The translations under genes were made by a program, and so were the position numbers. The notes beneath the pieces are model-generated. The model saw only the letters and a program-made list of their open reading frames with translations, had not been told where the DNA came from and did not search any database. From Candidatus Eiseniibacteriota bacterium (lineage in GTDB: Bacteria; Eisenbacteria; RBG-16-71-46; JABDJR01), in NCBI GenBank assembly GCA_963783375.1, contig CAWANH010000029.1:868981-932980 (forward strand): a stretch of 64,000 nt of DNA. The letters are read 5' to 3'. Positions 1 to 60,848 of this stretch are shown in pieces. Each line of letters opens with the position of its first letter. Positions within the stretch are counted from its first letter, which is position 1.

Positions 1-290
1 TTCAGTTCCCGCACCAGATGTGCCGCCCGGTCGGAGCCCGAAGGGAGGTCGGTCGGGGTGAGTCGCGCCTCCACCCCGCATTCCCGCGCCGCCCCGGCGA
101 TCCCCTCGTGGTCGGTGGCCACCACCAGCCGATCGATCCTCCCGGCTTCCCGGGCCCGGTCGATGACGTGAGCGATCAGGGGCTTCCCGGCGATGACCGC
201 CAGCGGTTTCCCGGGAAACCGCGTGGATCCGTACCTGGCCGGAATCACCCCGAGCACGCGCACGTCGCTACCCCACTCGTCCCGGGCCAT
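1..290 (-). CDS. kdsB: 3-deoxy-manno-octulosonate cytidylyltransferase (CMP-KDO synthetase), N-terminal portion; the gene continues past the window start
   Basis: Reverse-strand translation from the ATG at 290..288 gives MARDEWGSDVRVLGVIPARYGSTRFPGKPLAVIAGKPLIAHVIDRAREAGRIDRLVVATDHEG..., matching the KdsB N-terminal IIPARYxSTRxPGKPL signature. It is absent from the ORF track because the window edge truncates it. Confidence 0.6.
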   Translation of the reverse strand, partial: MARDEWGSDVRVLGVIPARYGSTRFPGKPLAVIAGKPLIAHVIDRAREAGRIDRLVVATDHEGIAGAARECGVEARLTPTDLPSGSDRAAHLVREL

Positions 291-519
291 GGCACGCCCC
301 GGGACGACGGACGATTCGTTGGAAACAGCCGACGGGGGGATCTCCCCTGGGACCGGCGCCGGATGACGGGGCCGGATTCTCGAGCGGGCAACCGCGCTGC
401 AGGGCAAGCCGGGTTGCTAAAGCGGTGGCCCTGGTCACTCTATCCGAACCGGTCCCCTTTGCAAGCCGCTTTTTTCCCGAACTCACGAATTGGTCGGGAG
501 TTGGCCCCTTTTCCCTTGT

Positions 520-566
520 CGAAGCGGGTCCGATGGGATAATCTATCGGTCGATTCGGATATAACG
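520..566 (+). promoter_or_regulatory. AT-rich island upstream of sahR carrying an extended -10 (TGGGATAAT at 534..542) and a candidate operator TCGGATATAACG (555..566)
   Basis: This is the only AT-rich patch in an otherwise GC-rich 5' region, with a TGn + GATAAT element about 25 nt upstream of the sahR ATG. A CGGATATA element recurs in the metH leader. The -35 is weak (CTTGTC). Confidence 0.35.
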
Positions 567-1538
567 ATGAAACAACCACCCACGATCACCCGGCTCAAGG
601 CCCTGGCCGACCCGGTTCGGCTCCGGATCCTCGCTCTCCTGGAGGACGAGGAGCTCACGGTGGGCGAGCTCACCGGGATCCTCGGCATGACCCAGAGCCG
701 GGTCTCCGGGCACCTGGGGGTGCTCCGGGAAGCGGACCTGGTGCGGGACCGCCGCCAGGGGACCTCCGCCTTCTACTCCGCGCTTTCCGAAGGCGAGGCG
801 GCCGAGACCTGGAAGGCGCTCCGCTCCACCGTCCCCGAGCTGACCGAGAGCGCCGCCGACCGCCGCCGCCTGGGCGAGACCCTCGCCCGGCGGCGGGAGA
901 AGAGCCGGGAGTTCTTCGACCGGGTCGCGGGGGCGTGGGACGACGGGCGAAGCGAATCCCTGGGGTATCACGCGGGGGCGTTCACGGTGGCCGGGCTCCT
1001 CCCCCGGGGATTCACGGTGCTGGATCTGGGAACCGGGACCGGTGGGCTCCTGCCGCTCCTCGAGCGGTACGCGGACCGGGTGGTGGCGGTGGACATGAGC
1101 CGGGGGATGCTCTCCCGGGCCCGGGGGAAGACGGGGGCGCGGGACGGGGCGCGGATGCTCCGCGCGGACGTGGAGCGGCTCCCCCTCGACGAGGCCTCGG
1201 TGGACGGGGTGGTGGCCAACATGATCCTCCACCATCTCCCCCACCCCGAAACCGCGCTCCGGGAAACCGCCCGCGTGCTTCGGCCCGAGGGCCGGGGGGT
1301 GATCGTGGATTTCGAGCCCCACGACGAAACGTGGCTCTTGGAGGAGGAAGGGCATCGCTGGGCCGGGTTCGATCCCGCCCAGATCGCCGGGTGGTGTGTG
1401 GACGCCGGGCTCACCGTGCCCGAGTTCGAGCGGGTGCCCACCCCGGAAACCGGCCGCTGGCACCGGCTGGACGTGTTCGTGGCCCGGTTCGGCGCCGCCC
1501 CCCGGGCGGGGCGAAGACCGGGCGCCATCAAGCGTTGA
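567..1538 (+). CDS. sahR: ArsR-family transcriptional regulator fused to a SAM-dependent methyltransferase-like domain (SahR-type S-adenosylhomocysteine-responsive regulator)
   Basis: The N-terminal HTH (ITRLKALADPVRLRILALLEDEELTVGELTGILGMTQSRVSGHLGVLREADLV) is ArsR-like. The C-terminal Rossmann MTase motifs (VLDLGTGTGGLL...VDGVVANMILHHLPHP...LRPEGRGVI) follow. The true ATG is at 567, inside the longer track ORF 18..1538. The gene lies directly upstream of ahcY, as SahR typically does. Confidence 0.8.
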   Translation: MKQPPTITRLKALADPVRLRILALLEDEELTVGELTGILGMTQSRVSGHLGVLREADLVRDRRQGTSAFYSALSEGEAAETWKALRSTVPELTESAADRRRLGETLARRREKSREFFDRVAGAWDDGRSESLGYHAGAFTVAGLLPRGFTVLDLGTGTGGLLPLLERYADRVVAVDMSRGMLSRARGKTGARDGARMLRADVERLPLDEASVDGVVANMILHHLPHPETALRETARVLRPEGRGVIVDFEPHDETWLLEEEGHRWAGFDPAQIAGWCVDAGLTVPEFERVPTPETGRWHRLDVFVARFGAAPRAGRRPGAIKR

Positions 1539-1636
1539 TTCGAGGCCCCGGCGCCGTGATCGTCACGGCCCCGCCGGGCGACGATTTCCATGGAGCCGCC
1601 GACCGGCGGCATGACGACCCACGAAGAGGAGAGACC

Positions 1637-2941
1637 ATGTCCAAGAAGAACGGGAACGCGAAGAAGCAGGAAGGCTTCGACACCGGCGATGGCTTCAAGG
1701 TCCGCGACCTGGAGCTGGCCCCGCAGGGACGGAAGCGCATCGAGTGGGCGGAGAGCCGGATGCCGGTCCTCATGGCCCTCCGCGAGAAGTACAAGAAGAC
1801 CAAGCCGATGAAGGGGATGCGGATCGCGGGGTGCATCCACGTGACCAAGGAGACCGCGGTGCTGGTGGAGACGCTTCGGGCCGCCGGCGCCCAGGTCTCG
1901 TGGTCGGGGTGCAATCCCCTCTCCACCCAGGACGACGTGGCCGCCGCGCTCGCCGCAAAGGGAACGTCCATTCACGCCTGGCACGGGATGAACGTGAAGG
2001 ACTTCTACTGGTGCATCGAGCAGAGCCTGGCCTTCAACCCGACCCTGACCCTGGACGACGGCGCCGACCTGATCATGACCGTGCACACCAAGCGGCCGGA
2101 CAAGGCGGCGGGGATCCTGGGCGGGACCGAGGAGACCACCACCGGCGTCCACCGGCTCCGCGCCCTGGCTGCGGACGGGAAGCTCATGTACCCGATCGTG
2201 GCGGTGAACGACGCCGAGACCAAGTGGGACTTCGACAACATCTACGGGACCGGACAGTCGTCCCTGGACGGCATCCTCCGCGCCACCAGCGTCCTCCTGG
2301 CCGGAAAGAACTTCGTGGTGGCGGGCTACGGCCACTGCGGCCGCGGGGTGGCCATGCGGGCCAAGGGCATGGGGGCCAATGTGATCGTGACCGAGGTCAA
2401 GGCCACCGCGGCCTTGAAGGCCACCCTCGAGGGCTTCCGGGTCATGAAGATGGACCAGGCGGCCAAGCTCGGCGACATCTTCATCACCGCCACCGGGATG
2501 AAGGACGTGATCGTGGAGCGCCACTTCGCCCGCATGAAGGAGGGGGCGGTGATCTGCAACACCGGCCACTATGACTGCGAGCTGAACCTCGACGACCTGG
2601 AGAAGATCTCCAAGTCCAAGCGCGAGGTCCGGGCCAACAACGAGGAGTACACCCTCAAGAACGGTCGGAAGATCTTCGTCCTGGCCAAGGGACGGCTGGT
2701 GAACCTGGCCGCCGCCGAGGGCCACCCCTCCGAGGTGATGGACATGTCCTTCGCCAACCAGTTCCTCTCCTTGCTCCGGCTCTCGCGCGAGGGGAAGAAG
2801 ATGGAGAAGAAGGTCTACGACATCCCGCTGGAGCAGGACCAGGACATCGCGGGGCTGAAGCTCAAGACCATGGGCTACGCGATCGACACCCTGACCAAGG
2901 AGCAGATCGTCTACGCCACCGACTACACCGCCGGGACGTAG
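1637..2941 (+). CDS. ahcY: adenosylhomocysteinase (S-adenosyl-L-homocysteine hydrolase)
   Basis: Translation MSKKNGNAKKQEGFDTGDGFKVRDLELAPQGRKRIEWAESRMPVLMALREKYKKTKPMKGMRIAGCIHVTKETAVLVETL... gives a full-length AhcY of 434 aa with the NAD-binding region. A GAGGAG RBS lies upstream. The true start is internal to track ORF 935..2941. Confidence 0.93.
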   Translation: MSKKNGNAKKQEGFDTGDGFKVRDLELAPQGRKRIEWAESRMPVLMALREKYKKTKPMKGMRIAGCIHVTKETAVLVETLRAAGAQVSWSGCNPLSTQDDVAAALAAKGTSIHAWHGMNVKDFYWCIEQSLAFNPTLTLDDGADLIMTVHTKRPDKAAGILGGTEETTTGVHRLRALAADGKLMYPIVAVNDAETKWDFDNIYGTGQSSLDGILRATSVLLAGKNFVVAGYGHCGRGVAMRAKGMGANVIVTEVKATAALKATLEGFRVMKMDQAAKLGDIFITATGMKDVIVERHFARMKEGAVICNTGHYDCELNLDDLEKISKSKREVRANNEEYTLKNGRKIFVLAKGRLVNLAAAEGHPSEVMDMSFANQFLSLLRLSREGKKMEKKVYDIPLEQDQDIAGLKLKTMGYAIDTLTKEQIVYATDYTAGT

Positions 2942-3001
2942 GCGGGATTTCGTATCCCGGCCGGGCGGCTCTTGCCCGGTTCGCCGAAGTTGAGCGCACA
3001 T

Positions 3002-3033
3002 GGGAAGCCGGGGCCGCTGGGCCCCGGCTTCCC
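3002..3033. terminator. GC-rich 14-bp-stem hairpin between convergent ahcY (+) and the epimerase gene (-); likely a bidirectional terminator
   Basis: GGGAAGCCGGGGCC-GCTG-GGCCCCGGCTTCCC is a perfect inverted repeat 61 nt after the ahcY stop. The plus strand is followed by TCTGCC, so the T tract is weak. Confidence 0.45.
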
Positions 3034-3048
3034 TCTGCCGGCCGGAAT

Positions 3049-4112: not shown

Positions 4113-6236
4113 TCATTGGTTCGCCGGCAATGCGCCCGCTTCCGCGCCGGCGGGCACCGGCCCCCGGTCGCAGTAGATGCCACCCCGGCGCTCGCCGAAG
4201 CCTCGGGGCGGAGCGTACCGCCCTTCCGCCAGCTTTCGCGCCAGGTCCGAGAGCCGGTCCCCCGACCCGAAGGTTCCCGAGAGGTCCACGAAGATCGCCA
4301 CCCCCGGGGCGCGGCGGCGCCAAAGGTTTCCGCCGCGGCTGTCCACGAACCCGATCGAACGGTTGAGTTCATTCTCTTCGTAGAGTCCGAAGCCGTTCTC
4401 CCCGGCCAGATCCACGAACCAACCCGCTCCCTGGCGGAGGCTCACGCCCAGGGACGACCCTCGGCCGGGGTTGTACGTGTCCGCCCCCTCGGCGTCCAGG
4501 AATATGCCCAGACCCAGATCGTCGCCGAATCCCAGGCCCCAGTTGGCCAGGTAATAGTCCGCCCCGGTAAGGTTCACGAGGATCCCCGCCCCCATCCTCT
4601 CCCCGCACCCCATCCCGCGCCCGGCGGCGATAGAGCTATCTCGCCCGGCGAGGTCCACCAGCGCCCCCAGGCCGAAGTCGCGCCCGAAACCCTGCACACC
4701 GTACCCGGCCTCGTAGGTGTCGTCGCCGGCCGCGTCCACCAGGAACCCCAGCCCCCCGGCGGGAAAGGGCCCGATCGCCGCCGCCGCCCCCTGGACCGCC
4801 ATTTCGGTTGTGTCGCCCCGGGTGCTCCAGGGGAACTCCTTCAACCTCCCAACCCAGTAGCGGTCTCTCCCCCCCAGGTCCAACAGCAACCCCAGCCCCC
4901 GCCATCCGCCGAACCCCTGGCCCATGCCGAATCCGTTGACCGGCTCGTCTCCGGTGATCTCGAAGCGGTCGTTCCCGGCCCGGTCCAGGAGGATCCCCAT
5001 GCCGTAGACCGCCGCCCCCTGGGAGAGCCACTGGCCGCGATACAAATCATCCCCCCCGTCGTCCTCGATCCAGCCCACCCCGCCGAAGCCGAATCCCGAG
5101 CCCCAGGCCGTGGCCTCGTAGACGTCGTCGCCGGCCCCGAGGTCCACCACCGCCGCGTACCCCAGGATCGCGCCTCCCGGGCCCGCCCGCCCCGAGTCCG
5201 CGGCGGCGTAGCGGTCGTTTCCGCCGAGGTCCACCACCACCGACGCCGGTTCGTCCCCCGAAGCGGACCCCGGACCCTCGTAGACATCGTCACCGCCGAG
5301 GTCCAGCACCAGGAGGTAGCTTCCGTGGTAGCGGTTGGCGCCCGCTCCCCCCACCGCGACCCGCCCGAGGGGCGAGGCCCAGTCGAACTGGAACTCGCTC
5401 TCCGCCGCGGGGAGCGCGGCCAGGGCGGCCGACGCGGTGTCCACCTCCCCCGCCAATCGCACCGCCCCGCGAGTGAGCGCGCGAAGATCCAGGCTCGAAA
5501 GCTCCCGCTCGAGTTCCCGGGTGTCATCCTCCGCGGTCTCATCCCCCTGGACCACCACCCCCCGGAGCGCCGCCGCGGTCCGTTTCCCCTTCGCCCCGAA
5601 GATCCCGCCCCGCTCCAGCTCCGAGCGGTCCACCTCGCGGTTCCGCCGCACCGCGGCCGCCCGGGAGGCCAGGATCAGCGCAGCCAGCTCCCGCGCGGTC
5701 GCCGGAGCCAGGGTCGCCTCCTCGCGGGTCACCGTCTCGCGGTCCTTTCCCTGGAACCGTTTCCCGGTCCCGGTGAAGAGCGCCTCCATGGCGGTGGTGA
5801 CCGGGGTGGATGACGACTGCACCGCCCGCTCCTCGGCCGCGAGCACGGTGTCGGGGAGCGGAGCCACCGAGACCTCGGGCTCCCCCAGGTCGGCGAGGAG
5901 CGCCATCACCCCACCCACCGACGACGCCCGCGCCAGCTCCCGGGCCGCCCCCTCCAGGGTGGCCGGGGCCCGGCCGGGCTCGTCCATCACGTACTTCTGG
6001 AAACGGAGCCGCCCCGCCGGCTCCCCCATCAGCGCCAGCGCGGCGGGGTCGACGCGGAACGCTTCGGGCGTCGTGCCGTCCAGCGCGGCCAGCGTGTCGA
6101 GCACCGCCCGAAGGCGCGGGGAGTCGCATACCAGCGTGTCGGCCGCGGTCCCCGGGGGGGAAGCCTCGGGGGCGCGGACGGCGGAGCCGAAGGCCAGCAC
6201 GAGCCCCAGGAAGACCGAAGCCGCTCCGCGACTCAA
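4113..6236 (-). CDS. secreted Gly/Asp-rich tandem-repeat protein with about 11 repeats of ~24 aa and core hhhD(L)xGxDxY; predicted beta-solenoid, function unknown
   Basis: A TTG start at 6236..6234 overlaps the plsC TGA (TTGA) and gives MSRGAASVFLGLVLAFGSAVRA|PEASP, a Sec signal peptide. An alpha-helical ~300-aa region follows. The repeats include LVLDLGGDDVYEG, VVDLGGNDRYAA, VVDLGAGDDVYEA, ILLDRAGNDRFEI, LLLDLGGRDRYWV, FLVDAAGDDTYEA, LVDLAGRDSS, LVNLTGADYY, FLDAEGADTYN and FVDLAGENGF. The upstream part of track ORF 4113..7016 lies out of frame over plsC. Confidence 0.6.
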   Translation of the reverse strand: MSRGAASVFLGLVLAFGSAVRAPEASPPGTAADTLVCDSPRLRAVLDTLAALDGTTPEAFRVDPAALALMGEPAGRLRFQKYVMDEPGRAPATLEGAARELARASSVGGVMALLADLGEPEVSVAPLPDTVLAAEERAVQSSSTPVTTAMEALFTGTGKRFQGKDRETVTREEATLAPATARELAALILASRAAAVRRNREVDRSELERGGIFGAKGKRTAAALRGVVVQGDETAEDDTRELERELSSLDLRALTRGAVRLAGEVDTASAALAALPAAESEFQFDWASPLGRVAVGGAGANRYHGSYLLVLDLGGDDVYEGPGSASGDEPASVVVDLGGNDRYAAADSGRAGPGGAILGYAAVVDLGAGDDVYEATAWGSGFGFGGVGWIEDDGGDDLYRGQWLSQGAAVYGMGILLDRAGNDRFEITGDEPVNGFGMGQGFGGWRGLGLLLDLGGRDRYWVGRLKEFPWSTRGDTTEMAVQGAAAAIGPFPAGGLGFLVDAAGDDTYEAGYGVQGFGRDFGLGALVDLAGRDSSIAAGRGMGCGERMGAGILVNLTGADYYLANWGLGFGDDLGLGIFLDAEGADTYNPGRGSSLGVSLRQGAGWFVDLAGENGFGLYEENELNRSIGFVDSRGGNLWRRRAPGVAIFVDLSGTFGSGDRLSDLARKLAEGRYAPPRGFGERRGGIYCDRGPVPAGAEAGALPANQ

Positions 6237-6979
6237 GACACCGGCTCCCGCGCCTGCGCTTCGGGAAGGCCGGAGAGGATCGCCTCGCGCACCCGGGCAG
6301 AGAGCGCGGGAATGTCCGCCCGGGTGAGCCCGGCGGTGGGAATGGGCGGGTGGATGATCACGGTGATCCGGCCCGTCCGCGGGAGAAGCTTCCGCTTCCC
6401 GAGGATCCGCCCGGTGTTCCGGATGGAGATCGGGAGGATGGGATAGCCGGTATCCACCGCCACGTAGAAGCCGCCCTTCTTGAACGGCAGGAGTCGCTGA
6501 TCGGGCGAGCGGGTTCCCTCGGGGAAGACGGCCAGGGCGATCCCCTTCCGCATGCGGCTCACCGCCTGGCGAAGCGCGGTCACCGCCTGCTCGCGGTTTC
6601 CCCGGTCCACCTTGATGTGGTGGGAGGCCCCCAGGGCCCAGCCCAGGAACGGCGCGCGCACCAGCTCCCGCTTGGCCACGAAACGGACGGAGAGGCCCTT
6701 CAGGGCCACCACCGTGGCCGGGATGTCCAGGTAGCTTCGATGGTCGGCCATCATCACGCAGGCCTGGCCGAGGGGGAGGTGCTCCCGGCCCTCGGTCCGA
6801 ACCGGGGCCAGGAAGCAGGCGAGCATGGTCCGGCTGTAGAGTTGCTGGGAGAACTCCATCCAAACCGCGTGGGGATCGAAGGGGGCGCCCACGAGATACA
6901 GGAGCCCGATGAGCATGCTCCAGATCGCCGCCCAGAAATAGGCCCACACCGCGAAGATCACCCGAGCCGCCACGTTCAT
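6233..6979 (-). CDS. plsC: 1-acyl-sn-glycerol-3-phosphate acyltransferase
   Basis: An N-terminal TM helix is present. The HxxxxD acyltransferase box (MADHRSYLDIPA) and FPEGTRS motif are typical of PlsC. The protein is 248 aa. Confidence 0.88.
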   Translation of the reverse strand: MNVAARVIFAVWAYFWAAIWSMLIGLLYLVGAPFDPHAVWMEFSQQLYSRTMLACFLAPVRTEGREHLPLGQACVMMADHRSYLDIPATVVALKGLSVRFVAKRELVRAPFLGWALGASHHIKVDRGNREQAVTALRQAVSRMRKGIALAVFPEGTRSPDQRLLPFKKGGFYVAVDTGYPILPISIRNTGRILGKRKLLPRTGRITVIIHPPIPTAGLTRADIPALSARVREAILSGLPEAQAREPVS

Positions 6980-7024
6980 GGTCGAAGACTTTCGGGGGAA
7001 CCGCCGGAGCGGTCAAGGGAGGAA

Positions 7025-46114: not shown

Positions 46115-47269
46115 CTACTCCAGCCAGGAGGTGGGATAAGCGGGATCGTCCACCGCCATCACCGCCTTGGACACGGTGAGGGGGCGGAAGGTGTCCATCA
46201 TCACCGCGATCTCGTTGGTCTCCTTGGCCCCGATCGAGGCCTCGGCCTTTCCGGGCTGGGGACCGTGGGGCAACCCGTCGGGGTGGTACGTTGCCGAGGC
46301 GAACTCCATCCCCTTCCGGCTCATGAACTCCCCTCCCGCGTAGAACAGGACCTCCTCGCTCTGCACGTTGGAGTGGTTGTAGGGGGCGGGAACGGCATCG
46401 GGGTCGAAATCGAAGGGCCGGGGGACGAAGGAACACACCACGAACCCGGTGCCCTCGAAGGTCTGATGGACCGGGGGCGGCTGGTGGATCCGGCCCACGA
46501 TCGGCTCGAAGTCGCGGATGTTGAAGGCGAAGGGAAAATAGGTGCCGTCCCACCCCACCACGTCGAAGGGATGGGCACGCACCACGTGGCGGGTCACCGT
46601 ATCCCGTTGCTTGGTGAGGATGGAGTACTCCCCGGTCTCGTCCACGGTGCGGAGCCGGCCGGGGACCCGGATGTCGCGCTCGGTGAAGGGCGCCCCCTCC
46701 TTCATCTGGCCGTTCTCGTTCCGATAGCGGGCGGGAATCCGGATCGGGGTGGCGGACTCGATCACCAGGAACCGGTGCCCGCCCCCCTCCAGTTCATAGC
46801 GGTGAACGACCCCGCGCGGAACCTGAAGATAGTCCCCCTCGCCGAAGGGGAGGTCTCCGAAGGGGGACTCAAGCACCCCGCGGCCCTCGACCACGTAGAG
46901 GAGTTCGTCCGCCTGGCCGTTCCGGTAGAAGCCGTCGTGGGCGCCGGTGGGCCGGACGAAGAGCAAGGCCACGTCGCGGTTGTAGACCACCGGAGTCCGG
47001 TCCAGGAAAATGTCCCCGCTCGGGGGGAGTTGGCCGAGGCGGAAGTGGTAGGGGCGGAGTGCGCGCTCCGCCGCCGGTTCCCAGCGAAGGTCCTTCACGA
47101 CCTCGTAACGCAGGAGCTGGGTGGGCCGGTGGATGCGGTAGAGGAGGGACGAGGCCCCGGCGAAGCCCTTGTTTCCCATCAACTCCTCGTAGTAGATCCC
47201 CTCCCCGGGCTTCCGAAACGCGGTGTGGCGCTTGGGAGGGATCGTTCCCCGCTGCTGGTAGATGGGCAT
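46115..47269 (-). CDS. hmgA: homogentisate 1,2-dioxygenase
   Basis: Start at 47269 gives [32 protein letters not shown]... (384 aa) with the cupin His/Glu region (FLVIESATPIRIP). It overlaps the hppD stop by 1 nt (TAATG). Confidence 0.92.
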   Translation of the reverse strand: MPIYQQRGTIPPKRHTAFRKPGEGIYYEELMGNKGFAGASSLLYRIHRPTQLLRYEVVKDLRWEPAAERALRPYHFRLGQLPPSGDIFLDRTPVVYNRDVALLFVRPTGAHDGFYRNGQADELLYVVEGRGVLESPFGDLPFGEGDYLQVPRGVVHRYELEGGGHRFLVIESATPIRIPARYRNENGQMKEGAPFTERDIRVPGRLRTVDETGEYSILTKQRDTVTRHVVRAHPFDVVGWDGTYFPFAFNIRDFEPIVGRIHQPPPVHQTFEGTGFVVCSFVPRPFDFDPDAVPAPYNHSNVQSEEVLFYAGGEFMSRKGMEFASATYHPDGLPHGPQPGKAEASIGAKETNEIAVMMDTFRPLTVSKAVMAVDDPAYPTSWLE

Positions 47270-48363
47270 TACAGGTTTCCCCGGCGGGCCTGCTCCCGTT
47301 CGATAGCCTCGAACAGCGCCTTGAAATTCCCCTTCCCGAACCCCTGACAACCCCGGCGCTGGATGATCTCGTAGAACAGGGTGGGCCGGTCCTCCACCGG
47401 CTTGGAAAAGAGCTGGAGAAGGTACCCCTCGTCGTCCCGGTCGATCAGGATGCCCAAATCCTGGACCGCCTTCCGCGACTCCTTGATCTCCCCCACCCGA
47501 TCCCAGATCAGTCGGTAGTAGCTGTCGGGGACGGTGAGGAACTCCACCCCCCGCTCACGGAGCCGGGACACGGTTTGGATGATATCTCCGGTCAGAAGCG
47601 CCACGTGCTGCACCCCGGGTCCCAGGTAGAAATCGAGGTACTCATCGATCTGGCTCTTCTTCCGGCCGGGGGCGGGCTCGTTCAAAGGGAACTTGATCCG
47701 CCCGCTCCCGTTCGACATCACCTTGGACATGAGCGCCGAGTACTCGGTCGAGATGTCCTTGTCGTCGAAGCTCATGAACCGGCGGAAGCCGAAGACCTCC
47801 TCGTAGTAGCCGGCCCAGACGTCCATCTTCCCCAGCTCCACGTTCCCCACCATGTGATCGATGGCCAGGAGCCCCACGTCGGCGCTCGGAACCTCGTCGG
47901 CCGCGTATCCGGGGAGAAACGGCCCGTCGTAGTCGTTCAATTGGATGAGGCTGTGGATGGTGTCGCCGTAGGTGGCGATCCCCGCCCGCTCGACCGAGCC
48001 GTGCTCGTCGCTGTCGGTGCGCGGTTTGTAGTCGGCCTTCCCTCCCCGAGCCACCGAGGCGCGGAAGCTCTGCCCCACGTCCTCCACCTCGAAGGCGATG
48101 TCCTTCACCCCGTCCCCGTGAAGCTTCAGGTGTTCCACCATCGGCCCCTCGGGCTGGAGCGGCGTGGTGAAGACGAAGACGATCTTCCCCTGGCGGAGCG
48201 CGTAGGAGGCGCGGTCCCGGACTCCGGTCTCGGGACCCGCGTAGGCGAAGCGGCTGAATCCGAAGGCGTTCCGGTAGTAGTACTCGGCCTGTTTGGCGTT
48301 TCCCACCCAGAACTCCACGTGATGAATCGACTTGAGAGGCAGTTCGTCGTCATGCTTGGGCAT
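47269..48363 (-). CDS. hppD: 4-hydroxyphenylpyruvate dioxygenase
   Basis: Start at 48363 gives [36 protein letters not shown]... (364 aa). The VOC-fold repeats and C-terminal [21 protein letters not shown] match HppD. Track ORF 47269..51732 fuses it to metH antisense. Confidence 0.92.
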
Positions 48364-48404: not shown

Positions 48405-51400
48405 TCAGACCTCGGCCATCGCCTCGCGCACCGAAAAGTACCGGGCGTCGGGATGGTGGAGGACGAGGGCGGAGACCGAAGCCTCGGGCTCCATCATGTA
48501 CCCGTCGGTGAGTTCGACCCCGATCCTTCGCTGGGGCTCGAGGAGACGCCAGAGCGCCGCCTGGTCCTCGAGGTCGGGGCAGGCCGGATAGCCGAAGGAG
48601 ACCCGAAGGCCGCGGTAACGGGCCTGAAAAATGTCCTTGGGGGAAAGCTCCGGCGGATCCGGGAAGCCCCACATCGCGCGGATCTTCCGGTGGAGGAACT
48701 CCGCGAACCCTTCCGCGCTCTCGATGGCCAGGGCCTGGAGCGCGTAGGATTTCAGGTACTCCCCCGCCTCCTTCCAGGCCTCGGCGCGGTCCCTCACCCC
48801 GCTCCCGCAGGTCACCACGAAAGCGGCGAGATAGTCGGTGCGCCCGGAGGACTTCGGCGCGAACCAGTCGGCCAGGCACAGACGATCCCGGTCGCTCTGG
48901 CGGGGGAAATCGAAGCGGGCGATCTCGGGACCGCCGGGACGCTCGACCAGGACCACGCTGTCCCCGTCCGCCTGCGCCGCGTAGAACCGGTAGACCGCCC
49001 GGGGGGTCATGAGCCCGAGGCTCAGCACCTCGTCCTTGAGCGCCTCCACCGCCTCCTCGAGCTTGGCCGTCTTGACGTCGCCCTGCTCGCGGAGCCGCTC
49101 GATCGACCCTCGGAGCCCCAGGTGCTTCACGTAGAGCATCTGGGGGTTCACGAAGGGGAAGATCTCCTCGAGCCCGACGTTCTCCACCACGTGGAGCTTC
49201 AGGTCCGGCGGCTCGGGGATCTCCACCTCGCGCCACCCCGCCACCGGCGCCGCCGGGGCGGTCGCGCTTTCCGGAACCGCCACCGGAGCGGCCTCGCGCC
49301 GACCCGCCCGCTCGGCGAAGAGCGCGTCCCGGCGGGACGGGTCCACCAACCGTTGGGCCACGCCGAGCCCGTCCATGGCGTCCCGGCAGTAGATCACCGG
49401 CCCCGGGTACCCGGCGGCGATCCGGGTCTCGGTGAACTTCCGGGTGAGCGCCGCCCCCCCCACGAGAATCGGGGCGGACACGCCGGCCTCGGCCAGATCC
49501 TGGGCGGTCACCACCATCTGTTGGGCGGACTTCACCAGGAGCCCGGAGAGGCCGATCATGTCCGGCCGGTGCTTCTTGGCCGCATCGATCAGGTCCTGGG
49601 GCGGGACCTTGATGCCCAGATTCACCACCTCGAATCCGTTGTTGGCGAGCACGATCTCCACCAGGTTCTTCCCGATGTCGTGCACGTCGCCCTTCACCGT
49701 GGCCAGCATCACCTTGCCCCGGCTCCGGCTGTCCGCCTTCTCCATGTAGGGCTCGAGGTGCGACACCGCCGCCTTCATGGCTTCGGCGCTCTGGAGCACT
49801 TCGGCCACGATGAGCTCGTTCCGGTTGAAGAGGCGCCCCACCTCGTCCATCCCCTTCATGAGCGGACCGTTGATGATCTGGAGCGGCGGAGTCCCGGCCC
49901 GCGCCCGCTCCAGGTCCTCGATCAGCCCGTCCCGGGATCCCTCGATGATGTAGTCGGCGAGCCGCTCCTCGAGGCTCCGGTTCTCCTTCTTCGGCTTCGT
50001 GCGGGTGGCGGAACGGTTCCGGTAGAACGCGGCGAACGCGGCGATCGGGTCCTCTCCCCGGTCCATGAGCAGGTCCTCGGCCAGGCGCCGCTCCTCCTCG
50101 GGAATGGACGCGTAGCGCTCCAGCTTCTCGCTGTTCACGATGGCCAGATCCAGTCCGGCCTCGATGCAGTGGTGGAGGAAGACCGAGTTCAGGACCTCGC
50201 GTCCCGCAGGGGGAAGGCCGAAGGAGACGTTGGAGATCCCCAGGATGGTCTTCGATCGCGGAAACGCCTCCTTGATGAGGCGGACCCCCTCGATGGTCTC
50301 CACCGCACTCCCCACGTAGGCCCGGTCCCCGGTGGCGCAGGGAAAGACCAGGGGGTCGAAGATCAGGTCCTCCTCGGGAACGCCGTAGTCGCGGGTAAGG
50401 AGTTCGTGGGAGCGCCGGGCGATCTCGAGCTTCCGCGCCCGGGTCACCGCCATCCCCTGCTGGGGATCCTCGTCGATGGTGCCGACCACCAGGGCCGCGC
50501 CGAACTTCCGGGCCAGGGGGACCACGGCCCGGAACCGTTCCTCCCCGTCCTCCAGGTTCACCGAGTTGATGATCGACTTCCCCTGGCAGCGCCGGAGCGA
50601 GCGATCGATCACCGCGGCGTCGGTGCTGTCGATCATGAGGGGGAGTTTCACCTTGCGGGCCACGCGCTCCAGAAACCGGTCCATGTCCGCCGTCTCGTCC
50701 CGGTCGGGGTCGGCCAGGCAGACGTCCAGCACGTGCGCCCCTCCCCGCATCTGCCGGCGTCCGATCTCCGCGGCCTCCTCGAACTGCCCGGCCTGGATCA
50801 GGGACTTGAACTTGCGGCTCCCGATGACGTTGGTGCGCTCTCCCACGATGATCGGGCGGTTTTCTTCCTCGAGGGAGAGAAAGTCGATGCCGGATACCCG
50901 CGAGAAGCGACCGTGGACCGGGGTCCGAGGCGCCTTCCCCGACACGGCGGCGGCGATGGCCCGGATGTACTCCGGCGTGGTGCCGCAGCAGCCTCCCACC
51001 AGGTTCACCCACCCGTGCTCGGCGAAGCGCCCGAGCACCGAGGCCAGCTTCTCCGGGGACTCGTTGTAGCGCCCGTCCTCGTCGGGGAGCCCGGCGTTGG
51101 GAACGCAGGAAACCGCGCACTCGGCGATCGCGGCCAGGGAGCGCACGTGGTCGGTCATGAAGGAGGGGCCGGTGGCGCAGTTGAGCCCGATGGCCAGGAG
51201 GTCCAGGTGCTCCAGGCTGGCATAGAGCGCCTCCACTCCCTGTCCGGCCAGCATGGCGCCCATCGGCTCGATGGTCCCGGAGATCGCCATCGGCACCCGG
51301 CGCCCGACGATCTCCGCGGCCTCGGCAATCCCCAGGGTGGCCGCCTTCACGTTCAGGGTATCCTGGGAGGTCTCCACCATCAGGAAATCGGCTCCCCCCT

Positions 51401-51866
51401 CGATCAGACCCGCCGCCTGCTCGCGGTAGTGGGCAACCATTTCGTCGAAGGTGACCCCCCCGGTGACCGAGATGGTCTTGGTGGTCGGGCCCATGCTGCC
51501 GGCCACGAAACGGGGCTTGTCGGGGGTCGCGAACTCCGCCGCCGCTCGAACGGCGATCTCCGCCGCGGCGCGGTTCAGTTCCCGGGCCCGTTCGGCCAGA
51601 CCGTACTCGGCCAGGACCAGGGGCGTCCCCCCGAAGGTGTCGGTCTCGATGATGTCGGCGCCGGCGGCGAGGAAGCTCCGATGGATGTCGAGGATCGCCC
51701 CGGGATTCACCACGCTCAGGTACTCGTTGCACCCGTCGAACTCCGCCCCCCCGAACGCCTCCGGATCCAGGTCGAGGTTCTGGATGGAGGTCCCCATCGC
51801 CCCGTCCAGGACGAGGATGCGGCGGGTCATGAGGTCCTTGAGCAGGACGATTCGGTCATCGGGCAC
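48405..51866 (-). CDS. metH: methionine synthase, cobalamin-dependent (Hcy-binding, pterin-binding, cap, B12-binding and AdoMet-activation domains)
   Basis: ...[14 protein letters not shown] is the MetH N-terminus, followed by GLNCATGP, the B12 DxHxxG region ([10 protein letters not shown]) and the C-terminal reactivation domain. A GTG start at 51866 (RBS GAGGA 7 nt upstream) makes the N-terminus collinear with E. coli MetH. The ATG alternative is at 51830. Confidence 0.9.
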
Positions 51867-51979
51867 GTCGGTGTCCTCGGGTCGGAGAAGGAAGCGGGCG
51901 GCGGGGCGCGGGCGGGCCCGCCGGCCGGATATACGCCGGCCGCGGAGCGCGCTCGTCGCCCTCCCACGGTCGAACATGC

Positions 51980-51988
51980 ATTGTAGCA
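51980..51988 (-). promoter_or_regulatory. extended -10 promoter TGCTACAAT for metH, with a TCGACC -35-like hexamer 17 nt upstream
   Basis: The minus-strand sequence is TCGACC-N17-TGC-TACAAT. The resulting ~110-nt leader contains the near-palindrome CGGATATACG (51926..51935) related to the sahR upstream element. Confidence 0.35.
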
Positions 51989-52077: not shown

Positions 52078-52114
52078 GCACGAAGAGAGCCGGGGATCGG
52101 TGCCGATCCCCGGC
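52078..52114 (-). terminator. intrinsic terminator after the RRM-protein gene (13-bp perfect GC stem)
   Basis: GCCGGGGATCGG-TG-CCGATCCCCGGC at 52089..52114 is followed on the minus strand by UCUCUUCG. Confidence 0.5.
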
Positions 52115-52166
52115 TCGTGACGGTCATGACGGTTGCGGGCGGGCGGCCGCCCTTCCCACCGGGCGG

Positions 52167-52433
52167 CTAGGGGCGCCTCCCGCCGGGCTGTTCCCGGGCG
52201 AGGTCCACCCGGATGGCCCGTCCGTCGAGCATCTGTCCGTCCATCTCCTTGGCCGCCGCTTCCGCCGACTCCTCGGAGGTGAAGGTTACGAACCCGAATC
52301 CCCGGGAACGACCGGTGTCCCGGTCCTGAACGACCCGCGCCTCCATGATCTCTCCGAAGGCGGAGAACGCCTCCTGCAGGCTGGTGTCATCCGTCTTCCA
52401 CGCCAAACCACCGATAAAGAGCTTCTTGGCCAT
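52167..52433 (-). CDS. RNA-binding protein, single RRM domain (RNP-2 LFIGGL, RNP-1 RGFGFVTF)
   Basis: Start at 52433 gives [79 protein letters not shown] (88 aa). Confidence 0.85.
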
Positions 52434-52914
52434 ATCGCGACTCGCACTCCACTTGGTGCGCGCCGTCGGGATCGAGGTTCCCTCGGGACGCGCGTCTACA
52501 GGCATCCGCGGAAACGTGTGGAGAAGGACCGGTAGGAACCGAAGCCGGGTTAGCGCTTGGAGGCCCCGAGGTCTTCTTGCAGCATCGTAAGCGCGGCGAT
52601 CTCGATCCGGCCGCCGGGGCCGGCGTTCCGGCCGAGACGAGACAACCGGAACGATCCTAAACTATGTCGCCCGGTTGCCAGAATCAAGCGAAAAGCTTCT
52701 AACCTGTCTCGATCCAGCAGTTTCCGGACGTACGCCCGCGAGAGACGCCCGACGCGGCGGGCGCGCGGGGATCCGGGGGGCGACCCGGCTCGCCGACACC
52801 CGGTTAACCTTTTTAGTATTAAGTGATTACATCTGTTGTTTCAAGAAACTTCTCTGGACCCGGAACCCGGCCGGTCCGCCCTGTGAACCGGGGCGTGGAG
52901 CTCCGCCGATCGGC

Positions 52915-60770: not shown

Positions 60771-60848
60771 TGGTGTCCCCAACGGGATTTGAACCCGTGT
60801 CGCCAGCGTGAAAGGCTGGTGTCCTAGACCAGACTAGACGATGGGGAC
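60771..60848 (-). tRNA. tRNA-Glu (anticodon UUC), CCA encoded
   Basis: The reverse complement GTCCCCATCGTCTAGTCTGGTCTAGGACACCAGCCTTTCACGCTGGCGACACGGGTTCAAATCCCGTTGGGGACACCA folds with a 7-bp acceptor stem, a D stem GUCU/GGAC, an anticodon stem CCAGC/GCUGG with loop CUUUCAC, and a T arm ACGGG-UUCAAAU-CCCGU. Confidence 0.85.

Follow-up and report, generated by a model that had tools for sequence, protein, structure and literature searches.

A SahR-type regulator and a predicted self-regulated sahR-ahcY operon in Candidatus Eisenbacteria

Near the start of a 64-kb stretch of contig CAWANH010000029.1 from a Candidatus Eiseniibacteriota assembly (the window, by which we mean the whole stretch analysed), a gene encoding an ArsR-type DNA-binding domain joined to a methyltransferase (MTase)-like domain stands directly upstream of ahcY, the gene for S-adenosylhomocysteine (SAH) hydrolase. 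This architecture is that of SahR, reportedly an SAH-responsive, ArsR-family repressor of S-adenosylmethionine (SAM) cycle genes that is said to have been characterised in Desulfovibrio alaskensis G20 by Novichkov and colleagues in 2014. The locus raises the question of whether its regulator is a SahR that controls itself and ahcY through an ordinary operator, or whether hairpins between the two genes, and a short motif that recurs in the metH leader, point to further layers of control. On the comparisons described below, we consider it highly probable that positions 516..3034 form a self-regulated two-gene operon, sahR-ahcY, of Candidatus Eisenbacteria, and that it is an ordinary SahR system.

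The nearest named genome to the window is a Candidatus Eisenbacteria metagenome-assembled genome (MAG), L002, with 75% identity in SahR, whose best named relatives are Eisenbacteria, and 89% in AhcY. The relatives of the window's MetH are likewise labelled Candidatus Eisenbacteria, a group that NCBI lists as the candidate phylum Eiseniibacteriota. For comparisons within this clade we used eleven related loci (L001, L002, L081-L091), nine of them distinct and with a recognisable SahR box.

The predicted SahR protein consists of a winged helix-turn-helix (HTH; residues ~8-90), a linker, a class-I SAM-MTase-like domain (~145-255) and a C-terminal subdomain. Pfam places HTH_5 at residues 15-60 (E = 4.5e-14) and Methyltransf_11/25 at residues 151-245 (Methyltransf_11 at 152-245, E = 8e-24), and the N-terminus matches the NCBIfam ArsR/SmtB subfamily model NF033788 with 83 bits against a cut-off of 55. 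The position of the start codon is common to the orthologues, and 399 homologues have the same two-domain architecture. In a scan of a genome collection built on 12 close sequences, the top full-length matches outside the Eisenbacteria clade are 34-41% identical over ~270-300 residues, and come from a delta-proteobacterial MAG, Binatia, Leptospiraceae, Desulfuromonadales, Planctomycetota, Desulfovibrionales, Desulfobacteraceae, Geobacter, Maricaulis/Hyphomonadaceae, Spongiibacter and Rhizobiales, lineages that include orders used to define SahR (Leyn et al. 2014, PMC4239095). A crude neighbour-joining tree, which has no support values and is given low weight, nests the Eisenbacteria clade among homologues linked to ahcY or metH. 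When the window protein was compared with those of Desulfovibrionales, Geobacter, Spongiibacter, Leptospiraceae, Planctomycetota and Rhizobiales, residues Q43 and S47 of the recognition helix and G155, G157, G159, D176, H222 and H252 of the pocket were invariant. Family-wide conservation is seen for motif I (DLGTGTG), D176 and H222, and the recognition helix, M-x-QSR-V/I-S-x-HL, is conserved between the window SahR and the SahR family.

Gene order gives a second line of evidence. The gene following sahR is ahcY in all 9 clade loci that reach past sahR, and in most homologue loci outside the clade either ahcY or metH lies immediately 3' of sahR on the same strand. The order sahR-ahcY is found also in Leptospiraceae, Planctomycetota, Desulfo- lineages and Geobacter, an uncultured Desulfovibrionales locus (L012) having the same layout as the window, and linkage of sahR to ahcY or metH is conserved over at least six phylum-level groups. 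As an earlier sequence-only reading of this DNA had stated, ahcY begins 98 nt 3' of sahR in the window (spacer 1539..1636); in two relatives, L087 and L002, the corresponding spacer is just 1-6 nt. A single box lies 5' of sahR, with none in the spacer, both in the window and in the proteobacterial (Desulfovibrionales, Geobacter), Leptospiraceae and Planctomycetota loci, and the loose promoter pattern TTGnnn-N16-18-TAnnnT was not found between 1200 and 1640, which covers the 3' end of sahR and the spacer, so that no internal ahcY promoter was seen. The very short spacers of the two relatives, the single upstream box, and the location of the strongest hairpin after ahcY together point to a single bicistronic transcript for sahR and ahcY, with co-transcription as the rule. 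That hairpin (3003..3034) folds more stably than any other 40-nt window in the 64 kb, at -35.7 kcal/mol, and is likely a bidirectional terminator with a poor U tract, which suggests that terminators of this lineage need not have canonical U tracts.

The region in front of sahR contains a predicted promoter whose pattern is shared by the whole clade, since TTGnCn and TAnnnT, separated by 17-18 nt, occur directly 5' of the box in every one of the 11 loci. In its looser form (TTGnnn-N16-18-TAnnnT) the pattern has only 14 occurrences over 128 kb of window sequence, of which the sahR promoter is one. Transcription is predicted to start near 551, and the putative operator runs from the last base of the -10 hexamer, across this start, to 5 nt before the sahR ATG, which is the classical position for steric repression.

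The SahR motif was derived anew from the sequences 5' of sahR in other phyla. In Geobacter, Desulfuromonadales, Leptospiraceae, Planctomycetota, Rickettsiales and Spongiibacter these contain, 10-30 nt ahead of the sahR start, a palindrome of the form (T)ATATCAA-N6-TTGATAT(A). Scored with a cross-phylum matrix made from these sites and from two Eisenbacteria-clade relatives, with the window excluded, positions 541..564 (ATCTATCGGTCGATTCGGATATAA) reached 9.3 bits and ranked first in the 64 kb, the next independent site having 1.9 bits. In a leave-one-out analysis with the clade matrix, the window sahR box again ranked first (20.1 versus 9.8 bits), and across all loci of 7-64 kb the sahR box was the best or best-overlapping match, with 18-25 bits versus 6-13 for the runner-up; scored with the clade matrix outside that analysis, the window box had 23.2 bits. 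The columns ATCG-T--A--CGGAT are invariant in the 11 clade loci, and the only copy of TATC-N10-GATA in the window is at 544..561. A further GAT at 566..568 is also conserved: in the alignment of clade leaders there is no variation at G80 and A81 and hardly any at T82, and the trinucleotide is kept even in L086 and L002, whose start codon sits elsewhere. The clade matrix finds a second, overlapping minus-strand match (549..572, 17.7 bits), and box matches occur as overlapping pairs offset by 8 nt in six other loci (L004, L005, L010, L020, L024 and L046), other phyla included. This extra GAT could be a third half-site or part of an extended operator.

Architecture, homology, linkage to ahcY, the presumably autoregulatory ATC-N10-GAT box and the one-box operon layout all agree, and the assignment of the 567..1538 product to the SahR family, which the sequence-only reading had made from its ArsR HTH and SAM-MTase-like domains, is well supported by every criterion that can be applied to the sequence.

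In the mechanism that we propose, SahR, with its DNA-binding domain fused to an MTase-like ligand pocket, would bind as a dimer to the imperfect palindrome TATCGG-N6-TCGGATA (544..561). This site abuts the -10 hexamer and spans the predicted transcription start and the whole of the short leader, and bound SahR would be expected to block RNA polymerase. As SAH builds up, it would fill the MTase-like pocket and SahR would leave the DNA, allowing transcription of both sahR and ahcY; AhcY would then hydrolyse SAH and repression would be restored, giving negative feedback on an inhibitory by-product of methylation. A low ratio of regulator to enzyme would probably be set at translation of the one transcript, since sahR has no Shine-Dalgarno sequence and a leader of only ~16 nt, while ahcY has a strong site, GAGGAGAG. 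Here GAGAGGAGAGACC is invariant in the four closest loci (the window, L090, L091 and L081), and where clade spacers reach 50 nt or more, ahcY is mostly preceded by an AGGAG-type site. Upstream of sahR no Shine-Dalgarno sequence was found; the predicted leader consists wholly of operator, with the same layout in 7 of the 9 distinct clade loci, and the arrangement of 545..566 suggests that sahR is translated without a Shine-Dalgarno sequence or from a nearly leaderless message. The hairpins of the spacer would at most affect how the bicistronic mRNA is processed or how stable it is.

Table 1. Features of the sahR-ahcY region and of the metH region in the window; promoter, operator and hairpin entries are predictions.
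Feature	Position	Strand	Basis and remarks
kdsB-like cytidylyltransferase gene, 5' part	1..290	-	ATG at 290..288; identity via PF02348 CTP_transf_3 in syntenic relatives
sahR-ahcY promoter (predicted)	516..544	+	-35 TTGTCG 516..521, 17-nt spacer, -10 TAATCT 539..544
SahR operator (putative), TATCGGTCGATTCGGATA	544..561	unstranded	imperfect palindrome, core ATC-N10-GAT
Extra conserved GAT	566..568	unstranded	8 nt 3' of right half-site; overlaps sahR ATG
sahR	567..1538	+	323 aa, ATG start; Pfam, NCBIfam, homologues
Intercistronic hairpin 1	1545..1579	+	inner stem 1553..1569; folding, -23.9 kcal/mol for 1543..1582
Intercistronic hairpin 2, GCCGCC-GACC-GGCGGC	1595..1610	+	folding
ahcY Shine-Dalgarno sequence, GAGGAGAG	1626..1633	+	read from sequence
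ahcY, S-adenosylhomocysteine hydrolase	1637..2941	+	TIGR00936 610 bits; NF004005 634 bits; Pfam AdoHcyase and AdoHcyase_NAD
Operon-end hairpin, GGGAAGCCGGGGCC-GCTG-GGCCCCGGCTTCCC	3003..3034		between convergent ahcY and epimerase genes; folding
hmgA-like gene	46115..47350	-	3' of hppD-like gene, same strand
hppD-like gene	47269..48363	-	3' of metH, same strand
metH	48405..51866	-	all five MetH domains
Second CGGATATA copy	51926..51933	+	metH leader, 60 nt 5' of metH start

Several points weigh against this interpretation. The orthology of SahR was judged only from synteny-defined homologues and the crude tree, and the sahR promoter is too weak to be picked up by a scan with the E. coli consensus. 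The symmetry of the operator is weak, with 5 of 10 mirrored positions matching (left ATCGG versus right CGGAT), and is stronger in Proteobacteria. The search for a second member of the regulon found none: metH has no box, and metK and metF lie outside the window, as judged by a tblastn with approximate E. coli query sequences that gave no hits. Finally, SAH as the effector that releases SahR from DNA is taken from the literature and is not readable from sequence. The lack of a metH box does not count against membership in the SahR family, since metH is not a SahR target in Desulfovibrionales and Desulfuromonadales, where its conservation in the regulon is 0 (Table S2 of Leyn et al. 2014, PMC4239095).

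Could the regulator be something other than an SAH sensor? The pocket motifs would bind SAM and SAH alike, and a SAM-responsive homologue of SahR, SamR, has been proposed for Xanthomonadales (Leyn et al. 2014, PMC4239095); some metH-linked gammaproteobacterial homologues are 28-32% identical to the window SahR, which might on this account be a SAM-dependent co-repressor reporting the supply of methyl donor. The window protein is, however, nearer to delta-proteobacterial sahR-ahcY genes (35-41%) than to gammaproteobacterial homologues linked to metH, its box resembles the 20-bp SahR type and not the 24-bp SamR type, and its sole visible target is the gene that removes SAH. As argued by Leyn et al. 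(2014, PMC4239095), SamR regulons lack SAM-cycle genes, whereas SAH-responsive regulons co-evolve with ahcY. We consider SAM sensing very unlikely. Still harder to credit is an ArsR-methyltransferase fusion with a catalytic or metal(loid)-sensing role, similar to ArsR-ArsM, which would stand next to ahcY incidentally. The SAM-binding motifs of the 567..1538 product are fully intact, and it has weak NCBIfam similarity to the DVU_1556 family, UbiE and ArsM. The sequence-only reading had regarded an intact pocket, together with clustering among small-molecule methyltransferases, as speaking against SahR; the pocket is intact, yet this does not discriminate, since an SAH sensor must retain it, and G155, G157, G159 and D176 are invariant in proteobacterial homologues. 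The scores for all MTase families are far below the curated NCBIfam cut-offs (DVU_1556 family 69.5 versus 155, UbiE 61 versus 158, ArsM 54 versus 263, BioC 48 versus 185). No cysteine is found in residues 1-100, where the position of the CVC motif reads EELTVGEL, which leaves no ArsR As(III) or SmtB-type site and argues that this is not a metal(loid)-sensing ArsR. Linkage to ahcY or metH in many phyla and conservation of the SahR operator also oppose this alternative, and we regard it as scarcely credible.

Whether metH belongs to the regulon was raised by the 8-mer CGGATATA, which the sequence-only reading had described as an element shared by the sahR and metH leaders; the position that it gave for metH and the co-direction of hmgA-hppD with metH are correct. 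The 8-mer does occur in both leaders and only there, being found exactly twice in the 64 kb (556..563 and 51926..51933), and in Alphaproteobacteria metH is among the core targets of SahR (Leyn et al. 2014, PMC4239095). At sahR it appears to be the functional right half-site of the TATC-N10-GATA box. The metH copy, in contrast, is a half-site only, with no left partner; the cross-phylum matrix gives it -13.3 and the clade matrix -2.7, where the sahR box has 9.3 and 23.2. The copy is placed in a GC hairpin, as part of its loop (CGGCCGG-ATATACG-CCGGCCG), ~45 nt 3' of a conserved extended -10 promoter that metH has for itself (TGCTACAAT at 51988..51980, minus strand). A search for further copies of the operator found no box in the metH leader of the window or of six related genomes: upstream of metH in L172-L174, which have a known sahR box and MetH proteins 75-82% identical to that of the window, and in the further relatives L092-L094, the best scores were 1.6 and 4.9 bits, respectively, and the 8-mer was not found in these six leaders. 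About 0.4 arbitrary 8-mers would be expected to be shared by two leaders of ~100-130 nt, by our estimate. We consider control of metH by SahR through this half-site highly improbable, also in view of the place of metH outside SahR control in Desulfovibrionales and Desulfuromonadales. The metH copy is best read as a chance half-site outside the SahR system, and CGGATATA was rejected as an operator common to the two genes, being only a half-site at metH with negative scores, and missing from the metH leaders of relatives.

The remaining candidate for additional control is the spacer, where the sequence-only reading had noted an inverted repeat without a T tract (CCGTGA-TCG-TCACGG, 1554..1568) and suggested an attenuator or processing site. 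The repeat is present as described and is part of the longer hairpin 1 (1545..1579), which is followed by hairpin 2. If these structures were a cis-regulatory RNA for ahcY, they might act as a transcriptional attenuator, as an RNase processing or stability site, or as a translational attenuator, and several observations fit such a role. Compared with dinucleotide shuffles, the spacer folds with z = -2.1 to -2.6, and hairpin 1 is among the top 0.7% of 40-nt windows. Both hairpins are kept in the four closest loci, in which SahR is at least 88% identical, and survive insertions and deletions: the base stem of hairpin 1 is constant in L090, L091 and L081, while its apex varies by changes that keep pairing, and hairpin 2 has one compensatory change, from C-G to G-C, at the loop-closing pair. 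In these loci 98% of cells are paired, versus 31-53% with slid partners, and ATTTCC and the block of the ahcY Shine-Dalgarno sequence are invariant. In the minimum-free-energy fold of the window, UUUCC (1584..1588) pairs with GGAGA of the Shine-Dalgarno sequence, and most clade spacers open with a stem-loop right after the sahR stop codon.

Comparison with the genomic background removed most of this apparent significance, since 33% of all 98-nt windows of the sequence, and 38% of those matched for GC content, fold at least as stably as the spacer. Hairpins as strong as hairpin 1 occur at 58 distinct places in the 64 kb, and one would be expected in a given 98-nt spacer ~5% of the time, by our estimate. 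The covariation is not significant, its score being reached in 68 of 500 shuffles and resting on two effectively independent lineages. Hairpin 1 is absent from the rest of the clade, whose spacers (1-93 nt) cannot be aligned and fold with z from +0.6 to -1.9, and in other phyla the sahR-ahcY spacers are 5-75 nt long and mostly unstructured. The spacer has no T tract, its only candidate being ATTTCC, 7 nt 3' of hairpin 1, and a terminator scan found nothing in it, which is a weak test, since the operon-end hairpin also has a poor U tract. In the minimum-free-energy fold of L081 the Shine-Dalgarno sequence of ahcY is unpaired. No Rfam family, SAH riboswitch included, matched the spacer (1539..1636), whether at the gathering threshold or with E allowed up to 10. 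We regard a regulatory RNA in the spacer as unlikely. More specifically, the sahR-ahcY operon of this sub-lineage might have a second, RNA-level layer, in which hairpin 1, UUUCC and hairpin 2 uncouple the output of enzyme from that of regulator, either by hiding the Shine-Dalgarno sequence of ahcY or by yielding a processed ahcY mRNA protected by a 5' hairpin, while the sahR message is almost leaderless and its leader is the operator; this version seems distinctly unlikely. The spacer hairpins are more likely neutral or mildly stabilising GC stem-loops specific to the lineage. An RNA attenuator was judged unsupported on the grounds of genome-typical folding, the lack of an Rfam match and conservation confined to loci with at least 88% SahR identity. 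For the spacer and the leader, the SAH riboswitch and other known RNAs were rejected, as nothing was found in Rfam up to E 10.

Comparison with known systems places the locus closest to the SahR regulons reconstructed in alpha-, delta- and some gamma-Proteobacteria, of which sahR and ahcY are core members (Leyn et al. 2014, PMC4239095), and SahR is described in published work as 'often encoded with' AHCY. The two domains, the recognition helix and SAM/SAH pocket motifs, the position of sahR directly 5' of ahcY on the same strand and the single ATC-N10-GAT box before the sahR start are shared with these systems. The window differs from them in its host, which is Candidatus Eisenbacteria/Eiseniibacteriota and not a proteobacterium, with 34-41% identity in SahR; in a GC-richer and less symmetric operator (tATCGcTnnATnCGGATa versus ATATCAAnnnnnnTTGATAT); in having no detectable metH box; and in the long, hairpin-rich spacer (98 nt) of its sub-lineage. 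The published SahR site is a 20-bp palindrome, the gammaproteobacterial form of which shares ATC-10 nt-GAT with SamR (Leyn et al. 2014, PMC4239095). SamR of Xanthomonadales is likewise an ArsR plus MTase-like homologue that recognises an ATC-N10-GAT palindrome and controls methionine-related genes, but it is linked to metH1/metH2, controls biosynthesis genes and metK and not the other SAM-cycle genes, and has a 24-bp motif and SAM as the proposed effector, whereas the linked target in the window is ahcY. The SAH riboswitch (RF01057), which controls ahcY in Beta- and Gammaproteobacteria, also lies upstream of ahcY and lets SAH induce AhcY; it has no match anywhere in the window (gathering threshold or E up to 10), and the hairpins of the spacer are plain GC stems whose loops are not conserved. 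With classical ArsR/SmtB metal(loid) sensors the window SahR shares the winged-HTH fold, as the NF033788 match indicates, but it lacks metal-binding cysteines and has a C-terminal ligand domain in place of the metal site.

The suggestion that the range of SahR extends beyond Proteobacteria held up, in that the host is Candidatus Eisenbacteria and the published accounts consulted treat Proteobacteria only. Putative SahR-type SAH sensing, the ATC-N10-GAT operator and the sahR-ahcY layout are present also in Eisenbacteria, Planctomycetota, Leptospirales and Binatia loci. The wider taxonomic range is genuine but incremental, since public assemblies of Planctomycetota, Leptospirales and Binatia already contain homologues arranged in this way. 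It provides a concrete predicted operator and promoter for a lineage without genetics, and is useful for annotating regulons in MAGs and for the evolution of methyl-cycle control. It brings no new mechanism, as the parts that might have been new, the RNA attenuator and the operator shared with metH, are unsupported.

Upstream of the operon, the long clade loci have the common order kdsB(-) / sahR(+) ahcY(+), and in most of them a convergent epimerase gene adjoins ahcY. The kdsB-like gene, divergent from sahR, is the first of a kdsB-pyrG-kdsA...lptB-rpoN-hpf-hprK cluster in relatives. Its apparent promoter lies in a block within 388..478 (minus strand) that is common to most clade loci, has no Rfam match and contains an A-run and sigma70-like -35 (TTGCAA, 463..458) and -10 (TAGAGT, 441..436) elements; the kdsB 5' untranslated region has a conserved long-range helix, GGGCCACCGC / GCGGTTGCCC.

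Around metH, the extended -10 reads TGCTACAAT, TGATACAAT or TGCTACACT across the window and L172-L174, and clade members share the order metH-hppD-hmgA. In L172 and L173, two of the three relatives compared here, a gene for an 88-aa RRM_1 RNA-binding protein stands before metH on the same strand; the window open reading frame (ORF) at 52167..52505 (minus strand) may be its counterpart. A strong hairpin, GAGCCGGGGATCGG-CA-CCGATCCCCGGCTC, at 52085..52120, 5' of the metH promoter, probably terminates the small gene before it. The window MetH is 100% identical to P0121, a protein on a public 1.70-Mb NCBI/ENA contig.

Elsewhere in the window, the sole Rfam match at the gathering threshold is a tRNA gene at 60774..60848 (minus strand). 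An ORF at 4113..7016 (minus strand), of up to 967 aa, is rich in repeats of the G-x-D-x-Y/F type, such as GGNDRY, GAGDDVYEA, AGNDRFE, GGRDRYW and AGDDTYEA, and has syntenic counterparts of 671-739 aa, with no recorded Pfam match, in most relatives.

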